Shown piece after piece: positions 1,422-18,527 of a stretch of 23,508 bases of DNA. Position 1 is the first letter of the stretch. Each line of letters begins with the position of its first letter. A program made the translations under genes and the position numbers. The DNA lies in the IMG/VR virus record IMGVR_UViG_2663763227_000016; one strand, 5' to 3'. The notes beneath the pieces were generated by a model. It had not been told where the DNA came from and did no database searches. It saw only the letters and a program-made list of their open reading frames with translations. This stretch comes from a virus. Taxonomy: Duplodnaviria > Heunggongvirae > Uroviricota > Caudoviricetes.

Positions 1422-3893
1422 TTAAAAATCAGCCTGATTCGGGATCAGTTTTTGCCAGATAGCTGAAACGTATTTTGCCTGGTAACGGGCATCATCCAGC
1501 GCATTGTGGCGCTCACCTTCGAATGGGATAGCAGTTCTGGCATCGAAGTCTACGGCTTTCCCCAGCTCAACGATTGTGCGTACATCGCGATCGTTGCAGT
1601 AGCGCCACGGGCAGGGGATACCCTGTCGTTCGTATGAACGGCGCAAAATCGTGTTGTCGAAGTTGGCCCCATTACCCCAGACCTGAACAAAAAACTCACC
1701 GGAGTTTTCGTCGATAAATTCCCGCAATTGCAGTAGTGCATCATCTAACGGGATTTCATCGGTCATAATGGCAGACTGCGCTTCACGTGATTGCTTCAGC
1801 CACCATTTAATGACGTCACGATCAATGACTCCGCCAGCAGTATCCAGATCGATGGTCTTGCTAAATTCTGGTCCCATATCTCCGGTTTGCGGATCGAAAA
1901 ATATTGCGCCTATTGAGATAATCGGGGCATCGGGATTTTTTCCCATGGTTTCAAGGTCGATCATCAGATGAATCCCCGCTCTGCTGGTGGATGTGAGATT
2001 ATGATGACTGTTCGCCTTAATTAAGGGATCTGACGCCTCGCCAGTTTCACTATCGCTGGCATGATGCTGATTGCCGCCAGTGTTCTCCTTGTGCTGATGT
2101 GCAGTACCTTCCATTTCCTCCGGATCATTTTCCTGAACTTCAGGCTGATTCTCTTCATCGAATATTTCCTGGTATGTTGCGTCGCCCATCACCGCGCCAC
2201 AATCAGGGCAGTTGCCGCCGCCGGTCTGACCGCAGGCGGTGCAGACTTTTTCCGGTTCCTGTTGCGCCACTGGTTCAGGCTGTTTCGTTTCTGGCTCGTT
2301 TTGTAACGCATTTGGGCTGTTTTGTTCCGCTTTCTGGTCGTTCTGTTCCGTTTCTTGCTGGTTCTGGTTCACAGAATCGCGGGTTTCAATCCCCTTCACC
2401 CATTTCGGATCATTCGGGTCGCTAATCCCTGCAACAAATTCACCACGTGATGCGGCGAGCAACTGATTGGCGTCAGGCTGGCTGATATTGGCTGCCTGCA
2501 TAATTTTCTTTACTTCGTCAGCGGTAACTTTTACCGGTTCTGGTTGTTCAGAATTTTGTGCGGTATTTGCATTTTGCGGTAAGCCTGTGTATGTGCCATT
2601 TTTTCGGGCAAAATATTCTTCTTTTGTGATTTCAGTAGCCCCGGCAGCCAGCGCCTTATCCAGACCAGAAAGTTTGTTTGCGCGACCGTATTTTTCGCAA
2701 TCCTTGTCGGTGAAGAAGAAGTAGAACGGCCCCTCACGCTCTACAGATGGTTCGACTTCCACTTTGCATTCGGTTTTTTCGTTGTCCGGAATTGCCGTTT
2801 CCACTGCATCAGTTTCTGGTACTGGCGACGAGAGAGTGTCAGTTGCGCTCTGATTTGTTCCTTCATCTTCAAACACGCCCTTTGTAGTCAGGTATTCAGT
2901 AATGTATTTGTTCAGTGCCACAGGGTCTTTGTGAATGTCGATCGGACGTTCACGGACAAGGCCAAAAATAGTCTGGCGGTCGTAGCGAAGGGCATCAGGC
3001 TGTTTGCGCATTGATGCCGAGATACGCTTCCAGTCTTCGCGGTCGTTGTCGATAACTTCATTTTTTGCCCAGCGATGGATGCTGCCGTCAATGTTTCCGG
3101 CATCCACATCACCAGGCCAGAGAGCGTAGGCCAGTTCGTCATCCAGTGTTTTCCATGTCTGCTTATATTCGCGACGAATGACTGCAGTGACAGGGGGGAT
3201 TTTTTCTGCTGAGTTTTCAGTGTGCTGTCGGTGGACTCTGGCGCGGGCGAGATCAACAACAGACGTGTATTTTCCGGTTTCCTTGCGTTCACCTTCGCGA
3301 CGTTTTTTCCAGATGCGCATCTCTGCCTGAATTTCGGGCCATTTGGCACCAGGCTTACATTTATGCTTAACCCACCCGATGGCATGCAGCTTAAGCTCCG
3401 GATACATGGCGTTAACTTCTGGCATTTTCATCAACGCTTCAACGATATGTCCGTCGAATGTTGCCATGTCTTCCTGCAACAATTCCTGCGCGCTAATCAC
3501 CATATCAACGGTGATGTTTTCACATGTGTCGAACTTAACCATGACAGCGTTCTGTACTTCAGGGGCCAGCTTGTCAAAAGCGACGTTCATCGGATCTGAT
3601 TCAGTCTCAACCGGGACAAAGGAAGTAGCCCCCTCATCCCAGCGGTTTTCCTGCATATATTCAGCATCCCATGAATCGAGGGCAGGGCGGGGTATACCGG
3701 GTTTATCCTCGCAAACAAGAAATTTATAAGCGCAGTCCTGAGCAGCCGGATAATGCTCCAGGAATTGCCAGTGAAATTTTGCGCGGGCGCGACGTTCATC
3801 ACCGGCTTCAATGGCAGTGGCTACAGCGACTGCACCTTCTTCCTTTATTGCCTGTTCGTCCGGAATGGCGGCGCAAATAAAGACTTTACTCAT
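1422..3893 (-). CDS. Large phage exonuclease with a C-terminal DnaQ-like (DEDDh) 3'-5' exonuclease domain
   Basis: 823-aa ORF with GAGG ribosome-binding site 9 nt upstream of the ATG at 3893. The C-terminal third carries Exo I/II/III-like motifs (MIDLETMG, WGNGANFDNTIL, HNALDDARYQAKY). A central acidic Q/E/N/P-rich linker contains a CxxC...CxxC element. K-12 ydfE is probably an N-terminal fragment of this family. Confidence 0.75.
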   Translation of the reverse strand: MSKVFICAAIPDEQAIKEEGAVAVATAIEAGDERRARAKFHWQFLEHYPAAQDCAYKFLVCEDKPGIPRPALDSWDAEYMQENRWDEGATSFVPVETESDPMNVAFDKLAPEVQNAVMVKFDTCENITVDMVISAQELLQEDMATFDGHIVEALMKMPEVNAMYPELKLHAIGWVKHKCKPGAKWPEIQAEMRIWKKRREGERKETGKYTSVVDLARARVHRQHTENSAEKIPPVTAVIRREYKQTWKTLDDELAYALWPGDVDAGNIDGSIHRWAKNEVIDNDREDWKRISASMRKQPDALRYDRQTIFGLVRERPIDIHKDPVALNKYITEYLTTKGVFEDEGTNQSATDTLSSPVPETDAVETAIPDNEKTECKVEVEPSVEREGPFYFFFTDKDCEKYGRANKLSGLDKALAAGATEITKEEYFARKNGTYTGLPQNANTAQNSEQPEPVKVTADEVKKIMQAANISQPDANQLLAASRGEFVAGISDPNDPKWVKGIETRDSVNQNQQETEQNDQKAEQNSPNALQNEPETKQPEPVAQQEPEKVCTACGQTGGGNCPDCGAVMGDATYQEIFDEENQPEVQENDPEEMEGTAHQHKENTGGNQHHASDSETGEASDPLIKANSHHNLTSTSRAGIHLMIDLETMGKNPDAPIISIGAIFFDPQTGDMGPEFSKTIDLDTAGGVIDRDVIKWWLKQSREAQSAIMTDEIPLDDALLQLREFIDENSGEFFVQVWGNGANFDNTILRRSYERQGIPCPWRYCNDRDVRTIVELGKAVDFDARTAIPFEGERHNALDDARYQAKYVSAIWQKLIPNQADF

Positions 3894-4362: not shown

Positions 4363-4528
4363 TATCGCGTCCTCAACAATGAATTTTGTGATGCGGTGCC
4401 TGGTGCCTCCAGGTGACGTTAACCAGTTAACAATTAACGCCGGATACAGAGAATCCACCCATAACACTGTTTTTGGTTTTAACTGTTCCGCGTGCGCTTA
4501 GCCGCATTCACTGCATCACAAAATTCAC

Positions 4529-4586
4529 TTTAAAAAGGGTGGCAGAGCAGTCACGGAGTAGAACTGATGCCACCAAAGACTACACA
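4529..4586 (-). ncRNA. dicF: DicF small regulatory RNA (ftsZ-targeting), processed from the operon transcript
   Basis: The minus strand reads ...GTAGTCTTTGGTGGCATCAGTTCTACTCCGTGACTGCTCTGCCACCCTTTTTAAAG, nearly identical to my recollection of K-12 DicF. It has the long-range stem GGTGGCA/TGCCACC followed by a U-run. Ends are approximate (+/-5 nt). Confidence 0.8.
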
Positions 4587-4911
4587 TGGATATTGTGGCG
4601 GGGCTGTCACTTAAGCGTATGGTCAGCCTGACAACCCGGTGTCCTCAAGGGGAAGGAATAACCCCGCCATACTTACCGCCGCGCCATTTCGCGGATTGCC
4701 ACAACCGGAAGCGCACGGTCGAATTAAATTTAACGACAAAGTACAGAGAGACGAGCTTCTCCGTGTGCTTTCGCGTTATGCTCTGACTTTTCAGAGAAAT
4801 ATCCTTTCAGTAAACTGTCAGTGCCGGATGTTCACCCGTGTCCGGCGCACGCACTCCACTTCACCCGTGGAGAACTCCTTAATTACCAACCTTAGCTTCG
4901 TTGGTTAGCTA

Positions 4912-5130
4912 TTAACGCGGGTATGTAATCATTCTGGCAATGCTTAATGCCGCTGCTTTTTCCAGATTGGTGATATCCTGCTCCAGAGCGGACAGATTTT
5001 CAGCCTGCTTAGCCCTGGCTTCATTGGCCCATTTCAGATCCTGCGCTGCATTAATTTTCTGGCGCATCCACTCATAAAGTTCATCATCGGTATAGTCTGG
5101 CGCGATGATGACGGGTTCTCGTTTCTGCAT
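4912..5130 (-). CDS. YdfC-like hypothetical protein (first clear gene of the dicB-type operon)
   Basis: 72-aa ORF with a strong AGGAG ribosome-binding site 5 nt upstream of the ATG at 5130. Length and position match ydfC of Qin; identity is from position only. Confidence 0.6.
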   Translation of the reverse strand: MQKREPVIIAPDYTDDELYEWMRQKINAAQDLKWANEARAKQAENLSALEQDITNLEKAAALSIARMITYPR

Positions 5131-5201
5131 GTCGGCTCCTTGTGGTTAGCGTTGCCTGCTTTTAACCACGTCAGGCGAGGTGGTATCCTCTGAGGGGTCT
5201 G

Positions 5202-5558
5202 TTACTCGAGAGGAAATTGGTTATGAGTACAATCAAGTTTTCTTGCCCAGAATGTGGTGGCGAAGTCTTTGACACATCCTTTAAGCCGCAGGGCTCTGAC
5301 AGTTTCGCGGGAGCCATCTGCAAAAATTGTGGTCACCTTGTAACTGAAGATGAGTCCTCGCAGTTCGATGACGAAATCGTTGACAATATCTTCGGTGCAC
5401 TCACCAGAGACTTTCTGAAGTAAAGGCGCATACCGCTTAGTTACCGCTCTGATAATTCTTACCTGTCCGGCAATGGCGCTGATGTCAATATAAAGCGCCA
5501 TTGCTGCTTCTTTGCCGATCCCGGGATGCCTTCCATTCTGATGTTTGACTTCGCCCAC
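5202..5558 (-). CDS. Hypothetical protein, possibly the ydfA/ydfB-equivalent of the dicB-type operon (alternative to the plus-strand zinc-ribbon ORF)
   Basis: 118-aa ORF starting at GTG 5558 with GAGGA 7 nt upstream, in the operon orientation. It sits in the codon-aligned antisense frame of a plausible plus-strand gene, which often stays open artefactually. Confidence 0.3.
   Translation of the reverse strand: MGEVKHQNGRHPGIGKEAAMALYIDISAIAGQVRIIRAVTKRYAPLLQKVSGECTEDIVNDFVIELRGLIFSYKVTTIFADGSRETVRALRLKGCVKDFATTFWARKLDCTHNQFPLE
5223..5423 (+). CDS. Putative small zinc-ribbon protein (CPECGG-x18-CKNCG), antisense to the early left operon
   Basis: 66-aa ORF with GAGAGGAA 7 nt upstream of the ATG, paired CxxC motifs, an acidic C-terminus and ordinary E. 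coli codon choice. It conflicts with the in-register minus-strand ORF 5202-5558; only one of the two is likely real. Confidence 0.4.
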   Translation: MSTIKFSCPECGGEVFDTSFKPQGSDSFAGAICKNCGHLVTEDESSQFDDEIVDNIFGALTRDFLK

Positions 5559-5739
5559 TGAGAAATCCTCTGTTTCCCCTTAACGCCGGGGTAGCGGAAC
5601 AAAAACCTGCTGCATAGTTATTAAAGTTGAACCCTGCCGTCATGTTCTTACGCCTCGGGCTGGCTACTTAACCCCTGACCACTGCTTGGTAACTCGAAGT
5701 ATTGCCCTGCATTCTGTGGGGCGGGGTGGGTGGCAGGTA

Positions 5740-5790
5740 TATAATGTACTTTGCGTTCATTGTTGTAAAGTACTTTTAGTACATTTTGTG
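5740..5790. promoter_or_regulatory. Candidate repressor operator / early-left promoter region (ATGTACT and inverted AGTACAT motifs)
   Basis: ATGTACT at 5744-5750 and its reverse complement at 5779-5785 within AAAGTACTTTTAGTACATTT, overlapping a TATATAAT box. The same 7-mer recurs twice in the repressor/cro intergenic region. Confidence 0.4.
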
Positions 5791-5859
5791 TGTAAAAAAA
5801 TGAGATGGGATAAAGTGAAGCACAAACCCGGAGGAAGGCGCTACCGGATTTATGCTGGT

Positions 5860-6358: not shown

Positions 6359-6613
6359 ATGAACCAGAAAACACTTGAAGATGTAATCAAAACTGTTCGC
6401 GTTGCTGTTGTGGCCGACGTTTGTGGTGTCAGCCAAAGAGCAATCTATAAATGGATGGATAACGGAAAATTGCCTCGCACAGAATATACCGGCGAAACAA
6501 ATTACGCTGAAAAAATCGCTCTTGCATCAAACGGATTATTTTCTGCCGATGCAATTTTAACTATTGGCAGGAATAAAACTACTACGAAAAAGCTGATGGG
6601 AGTTGATTCATGA
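6359..6613 (+). CDS. Cro-like HTH regulator (YdaS/DicC-like)
   Basis: 84-aa ORF MNQKTLEDVIKTVRVAVVADVCGVSQRAIYKWMDNGKLP..., with GAGGG 5 nt upstream of the ATG. It is divergent from the repressor, and its stop overlaps the next ATG (ATGA at 6610-6613). Confidence 0.7.
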   Translation: MNQKTLEDVIKTVRVAVVADVCGVSQRAIYKWMDNGKLPRTEYTGETNYAEKIALASNGLFSADAILTIGRNKTTTKKLMGVDS

Positions 6614-10159: not shown

Positions 10160-10846
10160 ATGACCCCAATAAAAATATTTATGACTATTGCTGATTTCAA
10201 ACGGCCTAAATTGGAGCTCCCAAACGGGGCAAACAAACTACTACTGCACTCTTGCTGTGCTCCATGTTCCGGTGAAGTGATGGAGGCGCTTCAGGCCTCG
10301 AGAATCGACTACACCATCTTTTTCTACAACCCGAACATTCATCCTCAGAAAGAGTATTTAATTCGTAAGGATGAAAATATTCGCTTTGCTGAACAACACG
10401 GCGTGCCGTTTATCGATGCTGATTACGACACCGACAACTGGTTTGAACGTGCCAAAGGAATGGAATGGGAGCCTGAGAGGGGGATCCGTTGTACCATGTG
10501 TTTTGACATGCGTTTTGAGCGGACAGCGTTGTACGCTGCTGAAAATGGTTTCAGTGTGATCAGCAGTTCACTGGGCATTTCACGCTGGAAAAATATGCAG
10601 CAGGTTAACGAGTGTGGGCGGCGAGCTGTTGCGCATTATCCGGGTATGGTGTACTGGGATTATAACTGGCGCAAGCAGGGCGGCTCGTCCCGTATGATTG
10701 AAATCAGCAAGCGCGAAAAATTCTATCAGCAGGAATATTGTGGCTGTGTGTATTCTCTGCGCGATACCAATCTACACCGCAAATCTCAGGGACGCCCTCT
10801 TATCAAAATTGGCCAACTCCACTACGGAAAAGAAGAGAAGGAGTGA
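10160..10846 (+). CDS. QueH-like epoxyqueuosine reductase (DUF208 family) moron
   Basis: 228-aa ORF with the N-terminal [11 protein letters not shown] motif I recognise from DUF208/QueH, plus further Cys residues (CTMCFD, CGCVY). There is no clear ribosome-binding site at either candidate start (10160 or 10181). Confidence 0.6.
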
Positions 10847-11083
10847 TTTTATGGATCACCTTTCTGATTGATTTCATATTGGCGAGGTGACGTGAGTTAA
10901 GTAGAATGGCTGCGGGTGCTTGAGGCTATCTGTCTCAGGCATGAACACTGAAAGGCAGATAGAGAAAAGCCCCAGTTAACATTTCGCGTCCTGCAAGACG
11001 CTTAACATTAATCTGAGGCCCAATCTATGTCTCACAAATGTAGGTTAGCCTCTTACGTGCCGAAAGGCAAGGGGAAGCAGGCT

Positions 11084-11239
11084 ATGAAGCAGCAAAAGGC
11101 GATGTTAATCGCCCTGATCGTCATCTGTTTAACCGTCATAGTGACGGCACTGGTAACGAGGAAAGACCTCTGCGAGGTACGACTCCGAACCGGCCAGACG
11201 GAGGTCGCTGTCTTCACAGCTTACGAACCTGAGGAGTAA
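11084..11239 (+). CDS. hokD: Hok/Gef-family type I toxin (HokD/RelF-like)
   Basis: 51-aa ORF MKQQKAMLIALIVICLTVIVTALVTRKDLCEVRLRTGQTEVAVFTAYEPEE, near-identical to Gef/RelF as I recall them. GGGGAAG ribosome-binding site; an in-frame upstream extension (from 11027) resembles a mok-type leader. Confidence 0.85.
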   Translation: MKQQKAMLIALIVICLTVIVTALVTRKDLCEVRLRTGQTEVAVFTAYEPEE

Positions 11240-12736: not shown

Positions 12737-13102
12737 ATGACTGAACGCATAGAATTTGTTTTGCCTTACCCGCCAACGGTGAACACTTACTGGCGACGTC
12801 GTGGCAGCACATATTTTGTATCAAAAGTCGGTGAGCGTTATCGCCGTGATGTGGCGCTTATTGTTCGCCAGCAGCAACTGAAATTAAACCTGTCCGGAAG
12901 GCCGGCAATAGAAATTATTGCAGAGCCACCGGATAAGCGCCGTCGTGACCTGGACAATATCCTGAAGGCACCACTGGATGTACTGACGCATGCGGGGCTG
13001 CTCATAGACGACGAGCAGTTTGATGAAATTAATATTGTGCGCGGTCAGCTTGTTCCTGGTGGGCGGTTGGGGATAAAAATCACAGAACTGGAGTACGCAT
13101 GA
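12737..13102 (+). CDS. rusA: Holliday junction resolvase RusA
   Basis: 121-aa ORF containing YPPTVNTYW...RRRDLDNILKAPLDVLTHAGLLIDDEQ...GGRLGIKITELE, closely matching RusA as I recall it. Confidence 0.9.
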   Translation: MTERIEFVLPYPPTVNTYWRRRGSTYFVSKVGERYRRDVALIVRQQQLKLNLSGRPAIEIIAEPPDKRRRDLDNILKAPLDVLTHAGLLIDDEQFDEINIVRGQLVPGGRLGIKITELEYA

Positions 13103-13788
13103 ATAACCAGTATTTACAGTTTGTTCGTGAGCAACTCATGATTGCCACCGCCGATTTGAGTGGATCAACAAAAGGGCAGCTTGAGGCCTGGCAGGAGAAT
13201 GCCATGTTTGATACAGGGCGTTACAGGCGTAAAAAAATCCGGTACCGCGATGAAGTGACTGGAAAAATGATAACGCGGGATAATCCACCAATCCCGGGAA
13301 AGCAATCGCTGGCGAAGGGGGTGTCAATTCCTCTCGTCAGTCCGGTTGAGTTTTCGACATCATCGTGGCGGCGGGCTGTTCTGTCTCTTGAAGAACATCA
13401 TAAAGCCTGGTTGTTGTGGTGTTACAGCGGGAGTATTTGTTGGGAATATCAGATCGCGATAACGCAGTGGGTGTGGAATGAATTTAAAACCCGGTACGGC
13501 ACCAGAAAAATTGCAGGGAAAACGCAGGAGCGCGTGAAGAAGTTGATCTGGCTGGCGGCACAGGATGTCAGAGGATGGATTACCGGGTGTGAGGTCTACC
13601 AGAGACAGGAGCTTGCCAGACTGTGTGGAGTTAAGCCTGATAACTGGAGCCATAATTATGCGAACTACTGGCGTGAGATGTGCGATATTTTTAAGAGTCT
13701 CGATAGAGAATCTGTGATTTGCACCGTGAAAATAAGAGCGCAACAAAAAGCGACTTTTTCACGACGAGATATTGCAAAAGTCAATTAA
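13099..13788 (+). CDS. Putative late-gene antiterminator (Q-like), by position
   Basis: 229-aa ORF overlapping the rusA stop (ATGA), the last gene before a promoter-like TATAAAT box and a strong terminator. I could not match it to lambda Q by sequence. Confidence 0.4.
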   Translation: MNNQYLQFVREQLMIATADLSGSTKGQLEAWQENAMFDTGRYRRKKIRYRDEVTGKMITRDNPPIPGKQSLAKGVSIPLVSPVEFSTSSWRRAVLSLEEHHKAWLLWCYSGSICWEYQIAITQWVWNEFKTRYGTRKIAGKTQERVKKLIWLAAQDVRGWITGCEVYQRQELARLCGVKPDNWSHNYANYWREMCDIFKSLDRESVICTVKIRAQQKATFSRRDIAKVN

Positions 13789-13849
13789 ATAGCGTACGTT
13801 TCGTATAAATCTGATATTTTGCCGATTTTGTACGCGATGGCAAAGTAAG

Positions 13850-13882
13850 AAAAAAAACTGCCGTCAGGCGGTTTTTTTTTAT
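13850..13882 (+). terminator. Intrinsic terminator (tR'-like) downstream of the Q-like gene
   Basis: A8-CTGCC-GTCA-GGCGG-T9: a short GC stem flanked by an A-run and a T-run, so potentially bidirectional. Confidence 0.65.
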
Positions 13883-14002
13883 GCCCAAAATCGCGTCAGT
13901 ACAGTAAACACGCTGGTGGTTGCGAATACGGGTCTTTCAGCTTGCTGGCTTTTTCGACAAGAGTTATTGGTATGTCACGTTAACCGGAAAAAGGAAAAAG
14001 AC

Positions 14003-14200
14003 ATGCTAAAACAGCAGGATATGACAGAAACCGCCAGAGTGGTGTTTAATGAATTAAGCGTTACCGAACCGGCGACAGTCGGGGAGATAGCGCAGAATAC
14101 TTACCTTTCACGCGAACGCTGCCAGTTAATACTGACTCAGCTGGTTATGGCGGGTCTGGCAGACTATCAGTTCGGTTGTTACAGACGCCTTCCGCAGTGA
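14003..14200 (+). CDS. Small hypothetical protein, possibly winged-helix, upstream of the methyltransferase
   Basis: 65-aa ORF MLKQQDMTETARVVFNELSVTEPATVGEIAQNTYLSRERCQLILTQLVMAGLADYQ... with AAGGAAAAAG upstream of the ATG. Confidence 0.45.
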   Translation: MLKQQDMTETARVVFNELSVTEPATVGEIAQNTYLSRERCQLILTQLVMAGLADYQFGCYRRLPQ

Positions 14201-14350
14201 AGGCTTTTTTATTTGTGGTAAATGGGCGGCTGGTGGGTGTTAGGGGCACTTACCAGCCATCTGCTCATGCGTTGGGTTCACAAGCAAACCTCAGGCCCAC
14301 TGCTTTGCGCAAAAGCAGAATGAGCCTATCAGAGACAGGCTTAATGATCC

Positions 14351-15400
14351 ATGCTTAATACTGTAAAAATATCCAGTTGTGAGTTAATCAACGCCGACTG
14401 CCTGGAATTTATCCGGTCGTTACCCGAAAATTCTGTTGACCTGATAGTCACGGACCCGCCGTACTTTAAAGTGAAGCCTGAGGGCTGGGATAACCAGTGG
14501 AAGGGCGACGATGATTACCTGAAGTGGCTGGACCAGTGTCTGGCGCAGTTCTGGCGGGTGCTGAAACCTGTCGGAAGTCTTTACCTGTTCTGTGGTCATC
14601 GCCTGGCATCTGATATCGAAATCATGATGCGTGAACGCTTCAGTGTGCTGAACCATATTATCTGGGCGAAGCCGTCCGGACGCTGGAACGGATGCAACAA
14701 GGAAAGCCTGCGGGCGTATTTCCCCGCCACAGAGCGCATTCTGTTCGCGGAACATTATCAGGGGCCGTATCGTCCGAAAGATGCCGGGTATGCGGCGAAG
14801 GGCAGTGCACTGAAACAGCATGTGATGGCCCCGCTGATTTCTTACTTTCGTGATGCGCGCGCTGCCCTGGGGATAACGGCAAAACAGATTGCAGATGCCA
14901 CAGGAAAGAAAAACATGGTGTCGCACTGGTTCAGTGCCAGTCAGTGGCAGCTACCGAACGAAAGCGATTATCTGAAATTACAGTCGCTGTTTGCCCGGGT
15001 GGCAGAAGAGAAACATCAGCGCGGTGAACTGGAAAAGCCCCACCACCAGCTGGTGGATACGTATACGTCACTGAACCGGCAGTATGTGGAGCTGCAGAGT
15101 GAATATAAGCATCTGCGGCGGTATTTTGGTGTGACGGCGCAGGTGCCGTACACGGATGTGTGGACACATAAACCGGTGCAGTTCTATCCCGGGAAACATC
15201 CGTGCGAAAAACCGGCAGAAATGCTGCAGCAGATAATCAGCGCAAGCAGTCGTCCGGGTGACCTGGTTGCAGATTTTTTTATGGGCTCAGGTTCAACGGT
15301 AAAAGTGGCACTGGCGCTCGGGCGTCGTGCGATTGGCGTTGAACTGGAGACCGGACGTTTTGAGCAGACAGTCAGGGAAGTTCAGGATTTAATCGTTTGA
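14351..15400 (+). CDS. DNA methyltransferase, beta-class amino-methyltransferase (N6-adenine or N4-cytosine), no restriction partner
   Basis: 349-aa ORF with the catalytic DPPY motif (LIVTDPPYF) near the N-terminus and the AdoMet-binding FxGxG motif (DFFMGSGST) near the C-terminus, the beta-class order. No endonuclease gene is adjacent. Confidence 0.85.
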   Translation: MLNTVKISSCELINADCLEFIRSLPENSVDLIVTDPPYFKVKPEGWDNQWKGDDDYLKWLDQCLAQFWRVLKPVGSLYLFCGHRLASDIEIMMRERFSVLNHIIWAKPSGRWNGCNKESLRAYFPATERILFAEHYQGPYRPKDAGYAAKGSALKQHVMAPLISYFRDARAALGITAKQIADATGKKNMVSHWFSASQWQLPNESDYLKLQSLFARVAEEKHQRGELEKPHHQLVDTYTSLNRQYVELQSEYKHLRRYFGVTAQVPYTDVWTHKPVQFYPGKHPCEKPAEMLQQIISASSRPGDLVADFFMGSGSTVKVALALGRRAIGVELETGRFEQTVREVQDLIV

Positions 15401-15449
15401 AACGGATGAGATTGCAGAATTAATTACGCACCATTATTATTCTGCTCCC

Positions 15450-15525
15450 GGCCCTTTAGCTCAGTGGTGAGAGCGAGCGACTCATAATCGCCAGGTCGCT
15501 GGTTCAAATCCAGCAAGGGCCACCA
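15450..15525 (+). tRNA. tRNA with CAU anticodon (Ile2-lysidine type or Met; ileZ-like)
   Basis: Manual cloverleaf: acceptor GGCCCTT/AAGGGCC, D-arm GCTC-AGTGGTGA-GAGC, anticodon loop CTCATAA, T-arm GCTGG-TTCAAAT-CCAGC, encoded CCA. Confidence 0.85.
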
Positions 15526-15532
15526 TCACATA

Positions 15533-15609
15533 CCGCCATTAGCTCATCAGGAAAGAGCGCCAGCTTTCGAAGCTGGTTGCGCGGAGTTCGGGTCCCCGAA
15601 GGCGGTCCA
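15533..15609 (+). tRNA. Possible tRNA-Arg (anticodon UCG), degenerate or pseudo-tRNA
   Basis: Manual fold: D-arm GCTC-ATCAGGAAA-GAGC, perfect anticodon stem CCAGC/GCTGG with loop TTTCGAA, encoded CCA. It has mismatches in the acceptor and T stems, a non-canonical T-loop (TTCGGGT) and starts with C. Confidence 0.45.
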
Positions 15610-15622
15610 TTATCTGTATCCT

Positions 15623-15699
15623 GCGTTGTTAGCTCAGCCGGACAGAGCAATTGCCTTCTAAGCAATCGGTCACTGGTTCGAATCCAGTACAACGCGCCA
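15623..15699 (+). tRNA. tRNA-Arg (anticodon UCU, reads AGA)
   Basis: Canonical cloverleaf: acceptor GCGTTGT/ACAACGC, D-arm GCTC-AGCCGGACA-GAGC, anticodon stem ATTGC/GCAAT with loop CTTCTAA, T-arm ACTGG-TTCGAAT-CCAGT, encoded CCA. Confidence 0.9.
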
Positions 15700-15743
15700 C
15701 ACTTATTTTCCCTGGCTCGCTTTTGCGGGCTTTTTTTAAATGT

Positions 15744-15958
15744 CTCACAATTCAGGCGGTTGACTGTTGTCTGGTTTGCGGGGAGTTTGTTAAAAGAAAC
15801 TGGCATGGTGAATCCCCCTGTGCGGAGGGGCAATCAGCGAGTAGGTATATGGGATAATCGCGGATTCAGGTGCTGGTACTGAATTCACCGGGAGGCACCC
15901 GGCACCATGCAATGGCACATAGCGCCACTCTCCAGCCCCTCTCCGGAGGGGCTTTTCT
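15744..15958 (+). repeat. Structured non-coding module, copy A (TTGACT box, two hairpins, terminator-like GCCCCTC-TCCG-GAGGGGC-TTTT)
   Basis: Shares with copy B, at a 468-bp offset, the blocks CTCACAATTCAG, CATGGTGAATCCCCCTG.GCGGAGGGGC, CACCGGGAGGCACCCGGCACCATG and CCCCTCTCCGGAGGGGCTTT. Confidence 0.6.
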
Positions 15959-16147
15959 GTGCCGGATACATCACAGTTTCTGGAACCTTAGGTACTACAG
16001 TATCAGTCAGGGTGCTATATTTTCAGATGTGATGAAAGCCTGTCAGCAGGCAGGGCGTATCGGAAATGACCCAGTAGAGAAAACGTTGACTCAGATACCG
16101 GTGCTGAGTTACCGGGAAACCGGCATCACATGACCGCTATCCTTCCA

Positions 16148-16174
16148 GGCCCATCCGCTCCGGTGGGCCTTTTT
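16148..16174 (+). terminator. Terminator-like hairpin between the two repeat modules
   Basis: GGCCCA-(10-nt loop)-TGGGCC followed by TTTTT. Confidence 0.5.
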
Positions 16175-16211
16175 ACTGCAGAAAACAGGTTCCCCGTTAA
16201 ATGCTATGTTG

Positions 16212-16444
16212 CTCACAATTCAGTAAGTTGACAGTTGCCTGTCAGACTGGGCATTTGTTAAAAAAATTTCGCATGGTGAATCCCCCTGAGCGGAGGGGCG
16301 ACTGGTGACGGTATAATCTCTGATTATCAAAACGAGAATGACGCGGGTTTAGTGGCACCGGGCTGAACTCACCGGGAGGCACCCGGCACCATGTGCATGA
16401 TGATACAGATACGCGGCTTTAGCCCCTCTCCGGAGGGGCTTTCT
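16212..16444 (+). repeat. Structured non-coding module, copy B (TTGACA box, GGTATAAT, hairpins, terminator-like hairpin)
   Basis: Diverged tandem copy of module A. It contains TTGACA (16229-16234) and a consensus-like TATAAT (16309-16314). Confidence 0.6.
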
Positions 16445-16673
16445 TATGGACAAAAAAAGCCCGCGCTGGGAGACGCGGGCGGCAAGGAATAAACAATAAA
16501 ACGTGAAGTAATATTTCAGCTGGCGAATAATACCCCATAGTAATCACTCTGCGCAACTGCGCGGTCTTTTTCGAATTGCGGGCTGTAGTCTCCCTTCTGC
16601 CATTGTCCTGTAACTTCCGGACTTCAGCCTGCTCCTTATCTGACTCACAACATTATCCCGCCCGGGAGGATTC

Positions 16674-18527
16674 ATGGCATTTAAACACTATGACGTGGTC
16701 AGGGCGGCATCGCCGTCAGACCTTGCGAAACGACTGACACAAAAACTGAAGGAGGGCTGGCAGCCGTTTGGTAGTCCGGTGGCCATAACCCCTTATACCC
16801 TGATGCAGGCGATTGCAGCAGAAGGTGATGTGGTCGTCAGTGGTGCAACTGAGCCGGAGTGGTACTACGTCATCGTACTGGCCGGGCAATCCAATGCCAT
16901 GGCTTACGGTGAAGGGCTTCCGCTTCCGGATTCATACGATGCGCCCCATCCGCGCATTAAGCAACTGGCCCGTCGTAACACAGTGACTCCCGGTGGTGAA
17001 GTATGCGTATTTAACGACATCATTCCTGCTGACCATTGTCTGCATGATGTTCAGGATATGAGTACGATTAACCATCCCCGGGCTGACCTGAGCAAAGGGC
17101 AGTACGGCTGTGTCGGACAGGGCTTACATATTGCCAAAAAACTGCTTCCGTATATCCCTAATAATGCGGGGATCCTGCTGGTACCATGCTGTCGTGGTGG
17201 TTCGGCATTCACCCAGGGCACGGAGGGGACATTCAGCGAGTCCACGGGAGCCAGTCAGGATTCGGCTCGCTGGGGAGTGGGTAAGCCGTTATATCAGGAT
17301 CTGCTTTTCCGCACGAAGGCAGCATTGCAGAAAAACCCGAAAAACGTTTTGCTGGCGATATGCTGGATGCAGGGGGAATTCGATATGACGAATGCCAGTT
17401 ACGCCCAGCAGCCAGCAGCATTTCTTGCAATGGTACAGCAGTTCCGTGCTGACCTTGCCGGGCTGGCGGCGCAGTGTCACGGTGGAAGTCCGGCATCAGT
17501 CCCCTGGATTTGTGGCGACACGACATACGCGTGGAAACAAGAACACGGTACGCAATATGAAGTGGTATATGGTGCATATAAAGGTAAAGAATCCCAGCAG
17601 ATTTATTTTGTTCCCTTTATGACCGATGGTAGCGGAGTTAATACACCGACAAACAACCCGTCAGAAGATCCTGATATTGCCGGGTCTGGTTATTACGGTT
17701 CGGCATCCCGAACGAACAAAAACTGGGTATCATCAAATCGCCCGACGCATTTCAGCTCATGGGCGCGTCGTGGCATTATTCCCGATCGTATGGCAACTGC
17801 TATTCTGAACGTAGCCGGTCGCACCTTAGCCTTCATTAGTGGTAAGGCACCGGAAATCAAACCCTCGCCCGGCGGCGACACGCCATCGGGGCCGTCTGAA
17901 GATGCATCCATACGCACAATCTCCCTGTTGCCGACAGCCGGAGACGCTGCTGCGCAGGGCTGGAGCATTAAGAATGGCGGAATTCAGTTGTCAGATGGTG
18001 TATTTAAGATCACCAAGCAGAGCAATAAAGCCTGGTCCCTGACGCGCCCGGTGGATGACGCAGTCTCCCTGCTGACACGGGGTGGCAGACTGAGCTGTAA
18101 GTTTCGACTGTCAGGCGCACTGACCAACAACCAGTTCGGTCTGGGAATTTATCTGTATACCGATGTAGCGTTACCTGACGTCGTGGCGATGACCGGGACT
18201 GGTAACCCGTTCCTGATGTCGTTCTTCACCCAGACCACAGACGGCAAACTGAATCTGATGCATCACAAGAAAGCAGGAAACACAAAGTTGGGCGAGTTCG
18301 GGAATTACAGTAACGACTGGCAGACGCTGGAGCTGGTGTTCACCGCCGGCAGTGCCACGGTTACTCCGAAACTGAATGGAGTGGCTGGCCCGGCATTCCA
18401 GGTCATAAAAGACAGTCTGACACTGGGGCTGAATGCGCTGACGCTGACGGATATTACCAAAAATGCAGCGTATGGCGTTGAGATAGAAAGTCTGGTGCTG
18501 GAGATAAATGCACCGGCATCATCATAA
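16674..18527 (+). CDS. Prophage sialate O-acetylesterase (NanS-p-like; SGNH/SASA esterase with C-terminal domain)
   Basis: 617-aa ORF with GGGAGGA ribosome-binding site. It carries the SGNH-hydrolase GQSN block (VIVLAGQSNAMAYGEG), and its position (after tRNAs, before the lysis genes) is that of nanS-p in Stx-phage-like prophages. Confidence 0.75.
   Translation: MAFKHYDVVRAASPSDLAKRLTQKLKEGWQPFGSPVAITPYTLMQAIAAEGDVVVSGATEPEWYYVIVLAGQSNAMAYGEGLPLPDSYDAPHPRIKQLARRNTVTPGGEVCVFNDIIPADHCLHDVQDMSTINHPRADLSKGQYGCVGQGLHIAKKLLPYIPNNAGILLVPCCRGGSAFTQGTEGTFSESTGASQDSARWGVGKPLYQDLLFRTKAALQKNPKNVLLAICWMQGEFDMTNASYAQQPAAFLAMVQQFRADLAGLAAQCHGGSPASVPWICGDTTYAWKQEHGTQYEVVYGAYKGKESQQIYFVPFMTDGSGVNTPTNNPSEDPDIAGSGYYGSASRTNKNWVSSNRPTHFSSWARRGIIPDRMATAILNVAGRTLAFISGKAPEIKPSPGGDTPSGPSEDASIRTISLLPTAGDAAAQGWSIKNGGIQLSDGVFKITKQSNKAWSLTRPVDDAVSLLTRGGRLSCKFRLSGALTNNQFGLGIYLYTDVALPDVVAMTGTGNPFLMSFFTQTTDGKLNLMHHKKAGNTKLGEFGNYSNDWQTLELVFTAGSATVTPKLNGVAGPAFQVIKDSLTLGLNALTLTDITKNAAYGVEIESLVLEINAPASS

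Follow-up and report, generated by a model that had tools for sequence, protein, structure and literature searches.

The interval between the tRNA genes and the esterase gene

In Stx phages, the toxin genes lie between the tRNA genes and an esterase gene of the late region, which raises the question of what occupies this position when no toxin genes are present. We examined a 970-bp interval of this kind in a 23,508-nucleotide stretch of Caudoviricetes DNA (IMG/VR record IMGVR_UViG_2663763227_000016; the whole stretch is called the window). Alignment with the Stx2a phage Stx2_95 confirmed the late-region order proposed in an earlier note on this DNA (Q, methyltransferase, three tRNAs, esterase and lysis genes) as well as the location of stx between the tRNAs and the esterase gene. 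Window positions 13854–15741 and 16213–16998 were collinear with positions 1782–3669 and 5005–5845, respectively, of the Stx2_95 locus (L003), with stx2AB between the two segments. Since collinearity stops at 15741, the last shared base before the stx cassette, and resumes at 16213, the toxin slot of the window holds the first two of the three plus-strand units described below (copy 1 and the middle unit; Table 1). The earlier description of the interval as equivalent to the Stx slot was thus accurate, its flanks being those of stxAB: the tRNA cluster and a terminator on the left, and an STnc100 unit and the esterase gene on the right. The equivalent of this left-hand terminator in phi24B is annotated as a terminator upstream of the stx genes.

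The interval had been said to contain no convincing ORF, and we agree: its overlapping ORFs (87–109 aa) matched zero Pfam families, and the candidate coding ORFs at 15870–16133 (+), 15504–15833 (−) and 15577–15882 (+), which had no Pfam match, were rejected. In RefSeq, the sole annotation is a fragmentary pseudo "hypothetical protein" located opposite copy 1 on the other strand, and the STnc100-type copies are unannotated. ExPEC and APEC strains, including CE10 and APEC O18, carry the same sequence with 100% identity.

All elements listed in the earlier note were recovered, at most a few bases from where it had placed them. The direct repeat (15744–15831 versus 16212–16299) extends over 88 nt with 80% identity and a spacing of 468, and each copy has its TTGAC(T/A) box. 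Two further repeat blocks were detected, one with 97% identity and a spacing of 484 (15879–15909 versus 16363–16393) and one that is identical in both copies (15934–15955 and 16421–16442). The interval contains 10 terminator-like sites, compared with 1.6 ± 1.4 expected from shuffled sequences; the extra terminators reported near 16148–16174 and, on the minus strand, 16450–16480 correspond to hairpins at 16147–16170 and 16480–16459. A third, diverged unit (16027–16176) and a convergent minus-strand RNA gene (~16452–16640) had been overlooked.

Table 1. Coordinates of features in and around the interval (window positions)
Feature	Position	Strand	Parts and basis
tRNA Met/Ile(CAT)	15450–15525		
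tRNA Arg(TCG)	15533–15609		
tRNA Arg(TCT)	15623–15699		
Intrinsic terminator ending the three-tRNA cluster	15714–15738	+	stem 15714–15731 plus T7 run
Copy 1 upstream/leader region	15744–15802	+	CTCACAATTCAG box 15744–15755; TTGACT 15760–15765; −35-like TTGTCT 15767–15772; repeat and conservation profile (57 distinct upstream regions)
Copy 1 extended −10 TGtTAAAAG	15788–15796	+	
STnc100 copy 1	15803–15958	+	four-helix scaffold 15803–15910; variable single-stranded tail 15911–15933; terminator 15934–15953 + U-run; Rfam match span 15774–15964
Middle unit extended −10-like element TGcTATATT	16013–16021	+	same in both alleles
Middle unit (third, strongly diverged STnc100/PasD-like unit)	16027–16176	+	scaffold 16027–16131; unpaired tail GACCGCUAUCCUUCC 16132–16146; terminator 16147–16170 + U-run; Rfam sub-threshold match and independent model
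Copy 2 upstream/leader region	16212–16270	+	CTCACAATTCAG 16212–16223; TTGACA 16228–16233; TTGCCT 16235–16240; repeat and conservation profile of upstream regions
Copy 2 extended −10 TGtTAAAAA	16256–16264	+	
STnc100 copy 2	16271–16447	+	scaffold 16271–16394; variable tail 16395–16420; terminator 16421–16440; Rfam match span 16242–16451
Putative convergent sRNA gene	16452–16640	−	5′ end uncertain (about 16630–16645, possibly further upstream); terminator 16480–16459 + U7; seed-like CCUUGCC 16487–16481
Terminator-like hairpin just 5′ of the esterase gene, within the minus-strand RNA gene	16549–16572	+	
Terminator-like hairpins	15714–15731, 15934–15953, 16147–16170, 16421–16440, 16549–16564	+	
Terminator-like hairpin	16480–16459	−	
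Sialate O-acetylesterase, NanS-p type	16674–18527	+	DUF1737 + SASA + DUF6645; downstream boundary gene

Two full-length STnc100 units

Both modules are full-length members of the STnc100 family (RF02076; 206 model positions, curated gathering score of 47 bits), far above threshold and chance. Copy 1 scored 136.3 bits (E 2.6e-30) and copy 2 scored 165.4 bits (E 9e-38), each over model positions 1–206; because both match the whole model, their resemblance to each other is far beyond chance. An independent covariance model of our own (R1) gave 109.9 and 112.3 bits, respectively, and the minimum free energy (MFE) fold of copy 1 reproduced the same architecture (z −2.2). The STnc100-type unit of Stx phages is located 3′ of stxB; that of Stx2_95 is 79.8% identical to copy 2 versus 69% to copy 1, and by position as well as by this sequence comparison, copy 2 is orthologous to the sRNA 3′ of stxB.

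These matches bear out the proposal that the modules are small RNA genes, as their homologues EcOnc27 and PasD are Hfq-bound and detected by Northern blotting. STnc100 corresponds to EcOnc27 in EHEC (Sakai prophage Sp5) and is related to EPEC PasD, all of them prophage sRNAs. EcOnc27 gives Northern bands of about 235/247 nt and shows Hfq-dependent stability (PMC4104026 supplement), and an STnc100 homologue has been detected by qPCR in outer membrane vesicles. Copies 1 and 2 share with EcOnc27/STnc100 the late-region position just 5′ of the sialate esterase gene, the strand, the scaffold and the terminator. They differ in that two full copies and a diverged third stand in tandem here without stx, and in their pre-terminator tails: the EcOnc27 probe, which matches the phi24B/Sp5-type STnc100 at 35/35 positions, has no match anywhere in the window.

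No canonical sigma-70 promoter was detected by a simple promoter scan of the interval's plus strand. The putative promoters of the plus-strand units are instead proposed from their extended −10 elements, which are conserved, and from the 5′ end of PasD, for which read coverage sets the transcription start at the G of GCAUGG. In contrast, the probe for EcOnc13 is directed at −45 to −10 of an STnc100-type unit. This position and the EcOnc27 band sizes imply either processing or a longer RNA whose start is close to the CTCACAATTCAG box (about −60), so that the transcription start is ambiguous; the TTGAC box at −43 to −38 is a canonical −35 for neither candidate start.

A diverged third unit between the two copies

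The "extra" terminator at 16147–16170 is the 3′ end of a third, diverged STnc100 paralogue, as confirmed with the independent model. With Rfam STnc100, this middle unit (16003–16176) scored 30.1 bits (E 1.7e-4), under the gathering score of 47, and was therefore filed as a diverged relative at PasD-like divergence. With R1, it scored 31.0 bits (E 8.4e-6), the next-best noise being 10.5 bits. PasD1/2 scored comparably (37.7–41.4 bits with Rfam STnc100 and 42.3 bits with R1). The MFE fold of the middle unit had a z of −2.7. It was found in 673 of 5426 complete E. coli genomes as two alleles with 86% identity, and in every fetched locus that holds it, it lies between two strong STnc100 copies; 341 of the 5426 genomes contain the trio of copy 1, middle unit and copy 2.

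PasD1 and PasD2 of EPEC E2348/69 (Pearl Mizrahi et al. 2021; Zhu, Shabalina and Storz 2026 preprint) are Northern-validated, Hfq-bound RNAs of 172–173 nt beginning GCAUGGUGAAUCC (PMC8550237). They resemble the window units in scaffold plan, in the 5′ motif GCAUGGUGAAUCC, in locus (between Q and the esterase or holin gene) and, like the middle unit, in sub-threshold STnc100 scores. However, in BLAST comparisons with the window, only their first 26–42 nt aligned (79–83% identity), and the window has neither the seed UGUGAG nor the terminator of PasD. PasD copies are reported never to occur in tandem (minimum distance 74 kb), whereas the window units are 224–244 nt apart from start to start. No PasA homologue was found downstream of the esterase gene in the window. 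An identification of the middle unit with PasD was rejected, since the sole BLAST matches of PasD1/2 in the window were to the 5′ motif in copies 1 and 2.

A probable convergent RNA gene on the minus strand

Judging by sequence homology, the minus-strand RNA belongs to the EcOnc08/21/42 group. Its 3′ part, including the terminator, is identical at 50/54 positions to the EPEC RNA E2348C_1409.E2348C_1408.IGR, and the target of the EcOnc08/21/42 Northern probe matches window positions 16556–16526 at 28/31. EcOnc08/21/42 of EHEC Sp4 is the same RNA as E2348C_1409.E2348C_1408.IGR of the syntenic EPEC PP6, and it lies, as here, directly 5′ of and convergent to the esterase gene. The EPEC RNA is Hfq-bound, with partners that include cfa and dppA and a target motif of GGCAAGG; the seed-like CCUUGCC conserved in the window is the exact complement of this motif. 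Homologue lengths are ~182 nt (EPEC estimate) and ~271 nt (EHEC Northern), and the 5′ end here is uncertain; a promoter-like site lies upstream at 16680–16652.

The layout is identical to that of the convergent pairs of Tree et al. 2014 (AsxR, AgvB), described as "convergent sRNAs at the moron site 3' of pR'"; in these, sRNAs on the plus and minus strands end back to back in the space from the moron CDS to the conserved ORF downstream. The pairs differ in the minus-strand member, which here is of the EcOnc08/21/42 group and not an anti-sRNA of the AsxR/AgvB type. AsxR/AgvB membership is defined by a conserved ~42-nt 3′ region and a match to the Rfam model, and an assignment to this family was rejected: RF02703 and RF02702 had no match at E ≤ 5 on either strand of 15690–16690, compared with an 88-bit AsxR match at the equivalent place in phi24B. 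The OmrA-B model matched weakly (25 bits, E 0.025), mostly at the terminator.

A conserved four-helix scaffold

The consensus structure of STnc100 (closing helix, three hairpins and terminator) is kept, as seen in Rfam alignments, MFE folds and covariation. The MFE folds reproduced the scaffold architecture without alignment input, with modest z values (−1.4 to −2.7). Among 18 phage-derived scaffolds there was little covariation information: compensatory changes were confined to P2, and the other three helices were invariant because the set had been picked by an exact 16-nt pattern. A wider set of 83 scaffolds from many Enterobacterales genera was collected by a degenerate-motif scan of species-representative genomes. 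In this set, compensatory changes occurred in all four helices across genera and at 22 of 27 pairs, with 95.2% of cells paired, a percentage inflated by the fitting of the alignment to the model. The covariation score was 0.50 versus ≤0.08 for slid partners, and 0/500 shuffles reached it.

A terminator follows 43 of 81 scaffolds at a median distance of 27 nt, and TGnTA-type −10 elements are present on many of the 81. Between scaffold and terminator, the tail sequence differs from allele to allele but is conserved within each. The scaffold (~110 nt) occurs in arrays of up to six, also on a Pantoea plasmid, and in the dicF–dicB spacer. We had considered the long helix closing the scaffold in this spacer as the known RNase III site of DicF maturation; this idea was dropped, as the literature places the site upstream of DicF.

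One tentative reading is that the ~110-nt four-helix scaffold (P0–P1–insert–P2–P3), which STnc100, PasD and the middle unit share, is a distinct structured RNA domain of mobile elements in Enterobacterales, wider than the present Rfam family, that acts as a modular 5′ chassis. On the same speculative reading, the scaffold might receive grafted seed-plus-terminator tails by recombination and be amplified to arrays of two to six, and it could serve without a terminator as a dicB leader in the dicF–dicB spacer of Qin-type prophages.

A probable cluster of small-RNA genes and its alternatives

Four independent small-RNA genes probably make up the 970-bp interval, clustered in the moron slot of a lambdoid prophage late operon. 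Family membership, structure, synteny, junctions and homologies are observed; by analogy with the homologues, we infer the expression, transcription starts, Hfq dependence and targets of the window copies. Three of them (STnc100 copy 1, the diverged paralogue and STnc100 copy 2) are arranged head to tail along the late strand and share a plan: an extended −10-like element, a 5′ scaffold of ~105–125 nt (closing helix P0, hairpin P1, a variable insert and hairpins P2 and P3), a mostly unpaired, allele-specific tail of 15–30 nt, and an intrinsic terminator. The fourth, on the other strand, converges on copy 2 and ends back to back with it. In the lysogen, each gene would be transcribed from its own sigma-70 promoter to its own terminator, giving stable RNAs of ~150–240 nt that may bind Hfq via the terminator U-tail and base-pair with host and prophage mRNAs via the variable tail just 5′ of the terminator. 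The PasD seed sits in this tail, and CCUUGCC has the corresponding place in the minus-strand RNA; with the variable tail as the seed region, different paralogues would thus carry different seeds on a common chassis. Upon induction, Q-modified RNA polymerase from pR′ beside Q (~13800–13880) would read past all terminators and on into the esterase and lysis genes. The stxAB cassette of Stx phages fills the exact place of copy 1 and the middle unit.

It is improbable that the units are mainly a cis-acting stack of terminators (insulators) shielding the esterase and lysis genes from read-through from the tRNA promoter and elsewhere, with RNAs that have no trans function. Five plus-strand terminator-like hairpins within 850 bp, versus 1.6 expected, stand directly 5′ of these genes, insulation would be useful where lethal lysis genes follow a constitutive tRNA cluster, and we found no function or verified target of STnc100 in the published literature. 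However, a terminator needs only ~30 nt, whereas the ~110-nt scaffold is kept across genera with covariation in four helices; the within-allele conservation of the tails, the abundance of the homologues as Hfq-bound RNAs with many RIL-seq partners and, possibly, the arrays on the Pantoea plasmid also argue against pure insulation. An insulator role is compatible with trans function.

That the interval is a non-functional recombination scar, made of decaying duplicates from repeated moron exchange and conserved because recent, is very improbable. The locus is highly mosaic, with alleles of internal and 3′ segments recombining freely; in EPEC PP6, one copy is interrupted by an IS element, and stx, cat and other cargo are found at the same junction. 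The suggestion of a scar left by cargo exchange holds only loosely: the locus is a hotspot of recombination and morons, but the sequences are conserved structured genes and not debris: compensatory changes keep all four helices across many genera, the middle unit retains its promoter-like element, scaffold and terminator in both alleles, and the homologues are expressed and Hfq-bound. Homologous prophages do not consistently show the unduplicated single-copy region that would have told against the earlier note: some relatives have one copy (phi296, Stx phages), but many carry tandem arrays.

The suggestion of duplicated late promoter/terminator (qut-like) units, in which tandem pR′ + qut + tR′ copies yield short RNAs as by-products of Q antitermination like lambda 6S RNA or StxS, is extremely improbable: each unit does have, on the late strand, a promoter-like region and ~150–240 nt further on a strong intrinsic terminator, and would yield a terminated short RNA that Q-modified polymerase reads through, with StxS, an Hfq-dependent regulator, as precedent for a regulatory pR′–tR′ RNA (PMC7547250), but a late promoter unit lies directly downstream of Q and is specific to its type, whereas these units are ~2 kb from Q, the same conserved unit follows three unrelated Q families (PF06323, PF06530 and PF03589), and in Stx phages it sits 3′ of stxB although stx expression relies on the upstream pR′. 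Lambda 6S RNA and StxS adjoin Q upstream of the tRNAs, are Q-specific and have no sequence or structural similarity to the STnc100 units. The Q gene of the window has its own terminator within 70–85 nt (13860–13872 plus T9), and Q with ~90 nt ending in this terminator (13099–13879) forms one mosaic module, with breakpoints at 13854 (Stx2_95) and 13879 (EPEC PP6) showing that Q and the short region move together. In Sp5, pR′–tR′ has been mapped upstream of the tRNAs (PMC7547250). From the sequence, pR′/tR′ likely adjoins Q ~2 kb upstream of the interval, with a candidate region at 13800–13880.

Implications

The cluster is real but represents largely known biology, its RNAs belonging to types previously reported from prophages of pathogenic E. 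coli; current concepts are unchanged because the family, the locus architecture and the link to Hfq have been published. As to genome annotation, RefSeq leaves these real genes blank or places spurious pseudo-ORFs over them; hundreds of ExPEC and APEC genomes contain them. As to phage biology, extra regulatory RNAs can take the place of a toxin in the moron slot, and the sRNA 3′ of stxB is not cargo but a constant neighbour of this slot. If the chassis reading is true, the near-invariant residues at junctions and in loops (GUGAAU, AGGCACC and GGCAC) would point to a specific, undescribed partner or activity, for example a protein, an enzyme that processes the RNA or a determinant of stability. 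Should the paralogues differ in seed while sharing one chassis, prophages would have a quick means of rewiring host post-transcriptional regulation, through the amplification of units in tandem and the shuffling of alleles at this locus.

Results

The window comes from a lambdoid prophage, of which it covers the early-to-late portion. E. coli CE10 (O7:K1), APEC O18, and further ExPEC-type genomes contain a 100% identical copy of its 1.3-kb tRNA-to-esterase stretch; of 5426 complete E. coli genomes, 341 carry at least 80% of this stretch. An earlier note had described a duplicated module and several terminators in place of a convincing ORF in this stretch, and its observation as a whole was confirmed. 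A repeat finder recovered the tandem module as matches of 15744-15831 to 16212-16299 (80% identity, spacing 468), 15879-15909 to 16363-16393 (97%), and 15934-15955 to 16421-16442 (identical), and the ORFs overlapping the gap had no Pfam match. A terminator scan found 10 terminator-like sites against 1.6 expected, including every site named in the note, among them the minus-strand terminator at 16480-16459. Annotations conflict for the CAT-anticodon tRNA at 15450-15525, which is Met according to ARAGORN and tRNA-Ile (ileZ) in RefSeq and phage records.

Features discussed in the text (positions in the window unless a fetched locus is named)
Feature	Coordinates	Strand	Details
DicF	4537-4588	minus	61.1 bits (Rfam)
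hok/sok-type locus	10914-11089		sok 120.5 bits (Rfam); hokD annotated in CE10
Q	13099-13788		
TATAAA, -10-like	13804-13809		
Terminator after Q	13860-13872		followed by T9 run
Three tRNAs	15450-15699		ARAGORN
STnc100 copy 1	15774-15964	plus	136.3 bits (Rfam)
Middle unit, extended -10	16013-16021		well formed, TGcTATATT
STnc100 copy 2	16242-16451	plus	165.4 bits (Rfam)
Esterase ORF	start 16674		
Pantoea sp. App145 plasmid pAPP145_2 arrays	L194 950-1988; L172 3116-4485		

An Rfam scan of the window at curated thresholds identified both modules as full-length matches to STnc100 (RF02076; gathering score 47), a prophage sRNA family, bearing out the note's suggestion of small RNA genes. STnc100 is related to the EPEC sRNAs PasD1/2, is associated with Q and a sialate esterase gene, and has no function yet known (2026 preprint, Storz laboratory). 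Because the EcOnc27 Northern probe matches the phi24B/Sp5-type STnc100 copy at 35 of 35 positions, STnc100 corresponds to EcOnc27 of EHEC Sakai, which is ~235/247 nt on Northern blots, the 247-nt form being destabilised (PMC4104026 supplement). Convergent sRNA genes between a moron CDS and a conserved downstream ORF, 3' of pR', have been described in Sp5 (3' of stx2B) and seven other Sakai prophages (Tree et al. 2014). PasD1/2 are 172-173 nt long, Hfq-bound, and Northern-validated (PMC8550237); PasD is reported never to be tandem, in contrast to the STnc100-type arrays in the window and elsewhere. "Hypothetical protein" ORFs or pseudogene fragments are annotated opposite STnc100 in the window (15793-15918, minus strand; 6394-6519 in locus L001) and in phi24B (L002 4745-4940), and these small annotations are probably artefacts of unannotated RNA genes.

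A permissive Rfam search of the interval gave a third STnc100 match between the two copies, full-length but weak (16003-16176; 30.1 bits, E 1.7e-4). R1, an independent covariance model built from 18 non-redundant scaffolds (the ~110-nt four-helix part) with this middle unit and PasD excluded, scored it at 31.0 bits (E 8.4e-6) in the whole window with filters off, the next-best noise reaching 10.5 bits. For comparison, PasD1/2, which are validated relatives, reach similar scores (37.7-41.4 bits under Rfam, 42.3 under R1). The predicted fold of the middle unit recovers the family architecture, and its 3' end is the terminator at 16147-16170. Its two alleles share 86% identity and together occur in 673 genomes, and two strong copies flank it in every fetched locus containing it. 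Both terminators that the note had counted as extra are present, and they end two more genes, the middle unit and a minus-strand RNA.

Across 84 distinct units taken from viral contigs, two blocks are almost invariant, GCAUGGUGAAUCCCCCUGUGCGGAGGGGC and UCACCGGGAGGCACCCGGCACCAUG. They lie on either side of an internal insert, and a pre-terminator tail comes after them; insert and tail each have many alleles, in mixed combinations. The two blocks fold into a closing helix plus three hairpins (P1, P2, and P3). Among 83 scaffolds from many Enterobacterales genera, in an alignment that was itself fitted to the model, 95.2% of cells held a standard pair (37-49% with slid partners), 22 of 27 pairs distributed over all four helices showed compensatory change (6-11 with slid partners), and the covariation score was 0.50 (at most 0.08 with slid partners), a value attained by 0 of 500 shuffles.

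The PasD seed lies in the tail between scaffold and terminator, and the three tails in the window all differ from one another. In other genera, a terminator comes after about half of the scaffolds (median distance 27 nt), and TGnTA-type -10 elements lie directly upstream of many. From these features we infer that each unit would be an independent sigma-70 gene whose product binds Hfq, with the tail as the base-pairing region; in lytic growth, Q-modified polymerase would read through the units. One candidate start is the PasD 5' end, the G of GCAUGG, which fits a conserved TGtTAAAA at -15 to -7. How large EcOnc27 is and where the EcOnc13 probe lies instead point to a longer form, which would start near the CTCACAATTCAG box (about -60), the position at which the repeat unit begins. 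The TTGAC box noted earlier lies at -43 to -38.

The note had also offered duplicated late promoter/terminator (qut-like) units. The Q proteins encoded upstream of STnc100/PasD units belong to three unrelated families, PF06323 (the window and EPEC PP2), PF06530 (phi24B and Stx2_95), and PF03589 (fetched locus L008 and EPEC PP4), and a Q-specific qut site could not be so shared; a late promoter/qut identity is therefore very unlikely. The late promoter and tR' module is instead probably at 13789-13880, directly after Q. Since homology with other phages breaks at 13854 and 13879, Q and the adjoining short region behave as a single module. In Sp5, mapping places the pR'-tR' RNA StxS upstream of both stx2AB and the tRNA promoter (PMC7547250).

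The proposed equivalence to the Stx slot was upheld by comparison with the Stx2a phage Stx2_95 (L003), which has the same gene order (DUF968 gene, Q, small ORF, methylase, three tRNAs) and then stx2A, stx2B, and the esterase gene. The two sequences are collinear over 13854-15741 (93.6% identity) and then from 16213 onward (79.8%), with the 1.3-kb stx2AB cassette exactly between the points matching 15741 and 16213. As collinearity resumes beyond stx2AB, copy 2 is the orthologue of the STnc100 gene 3' of stxB, and copy 1 and the middle unit fill the toxin position. The stx-negative phage phi296 has one copy only. In EPEC E2348/69 prophage PP6 (L007 1600-3151), a copy-1 allele, identical to that of the window over its 3' 138 nt, is interrupted by ISEc13; the 8-bp overlap at the junction is probably a target-site duplication.

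The minus-strand RNA ends at the 16480-16459 terminator, and its 3' 54 nt match the EPEC RIL-seq RNA E2348C_1409.E2348C_1408.IGR at 50 of 54 positions. That RNA is Hfq-bound, with cfa, dppA, and others as partners sharing the target motif GGCAAGG, of which CCUUGCC in the window RNA (16487-16481) is the exact complement. The EHEC homologues are EcOnc08/21/42, whose Northern probe target lies at 16556-16526 (28/31). An AsxR/AgvB-type anti-sRNA identity was ruled out by the permissive Rfam search of the interval. A plus-strand terminator-like hairpin (16549-16572) lies inside the gene for this RNA, and the sole promoter-like site for the RNA (16652-16680) overlaps the esterase start codon.

Among the fetched loci, nine contain the window-type trio and four contain a second allelic trio; locus L013 has four scaffolds in tandem (2326-3350). 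Arrays of three to six are present in Superficieibacter (L193, L189) and on a Pantoea plasmid, and such arrays on a plasmid and on chromosomes of other genera indicate that the scaffold extends well past E. coli and Salmonella. Amplification into arrays is common.

R1 also detected a fourth, full-length scaffold in the window (4516-4391, minus strand; 58.9 bits, E 2e-12), which lies immediately 3' of DicF and ends ~40 nt before the start codon of dicB (4351); Rfam STnc100 gave a sub-threshold 32.7 bits. Compensatory changes preserve four of its four helices, flanking bases lengthen the closing helix to ~19 bp, and no terminator lies 3' of it. A DicF-plus-spacer query containing it (4380-4600) was at least 80% covered in ~4300 E. 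coli genomes, BL21 and K-12 derivatives among them. No description of this scaffold was found in the dicBF paper; the RNase III site of DicF maturation is upstream of DicF, so the spacer structure apparently falls outside that work. With DicF and the hok/sok-type locus, the 23.5-kb prophage holds at least seven small-RNA elements. The identical prophage of CE10 has an annotated QueH (epoxyqueuosine reductase, a tRNA-modification enzyme), apparently ORF 10160-10846 by inferred coordinate match, a few kb upstream of the phage tRNA cluster.

Discussion

The feature is real. Its units are ordinary members of a class that has already been published, as has the architecture of the locus. Our additions are modest: we recognise a third diverged paralogue, identify the convergent RNA, place the stx junctions exactly, provide covariation support, and find the scaffold to be more widely distributed. 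Were the minus-strand RNA to match its EHEC homologue in length (~271 nt), it would run antisense to the 5' end of the esterase gene.
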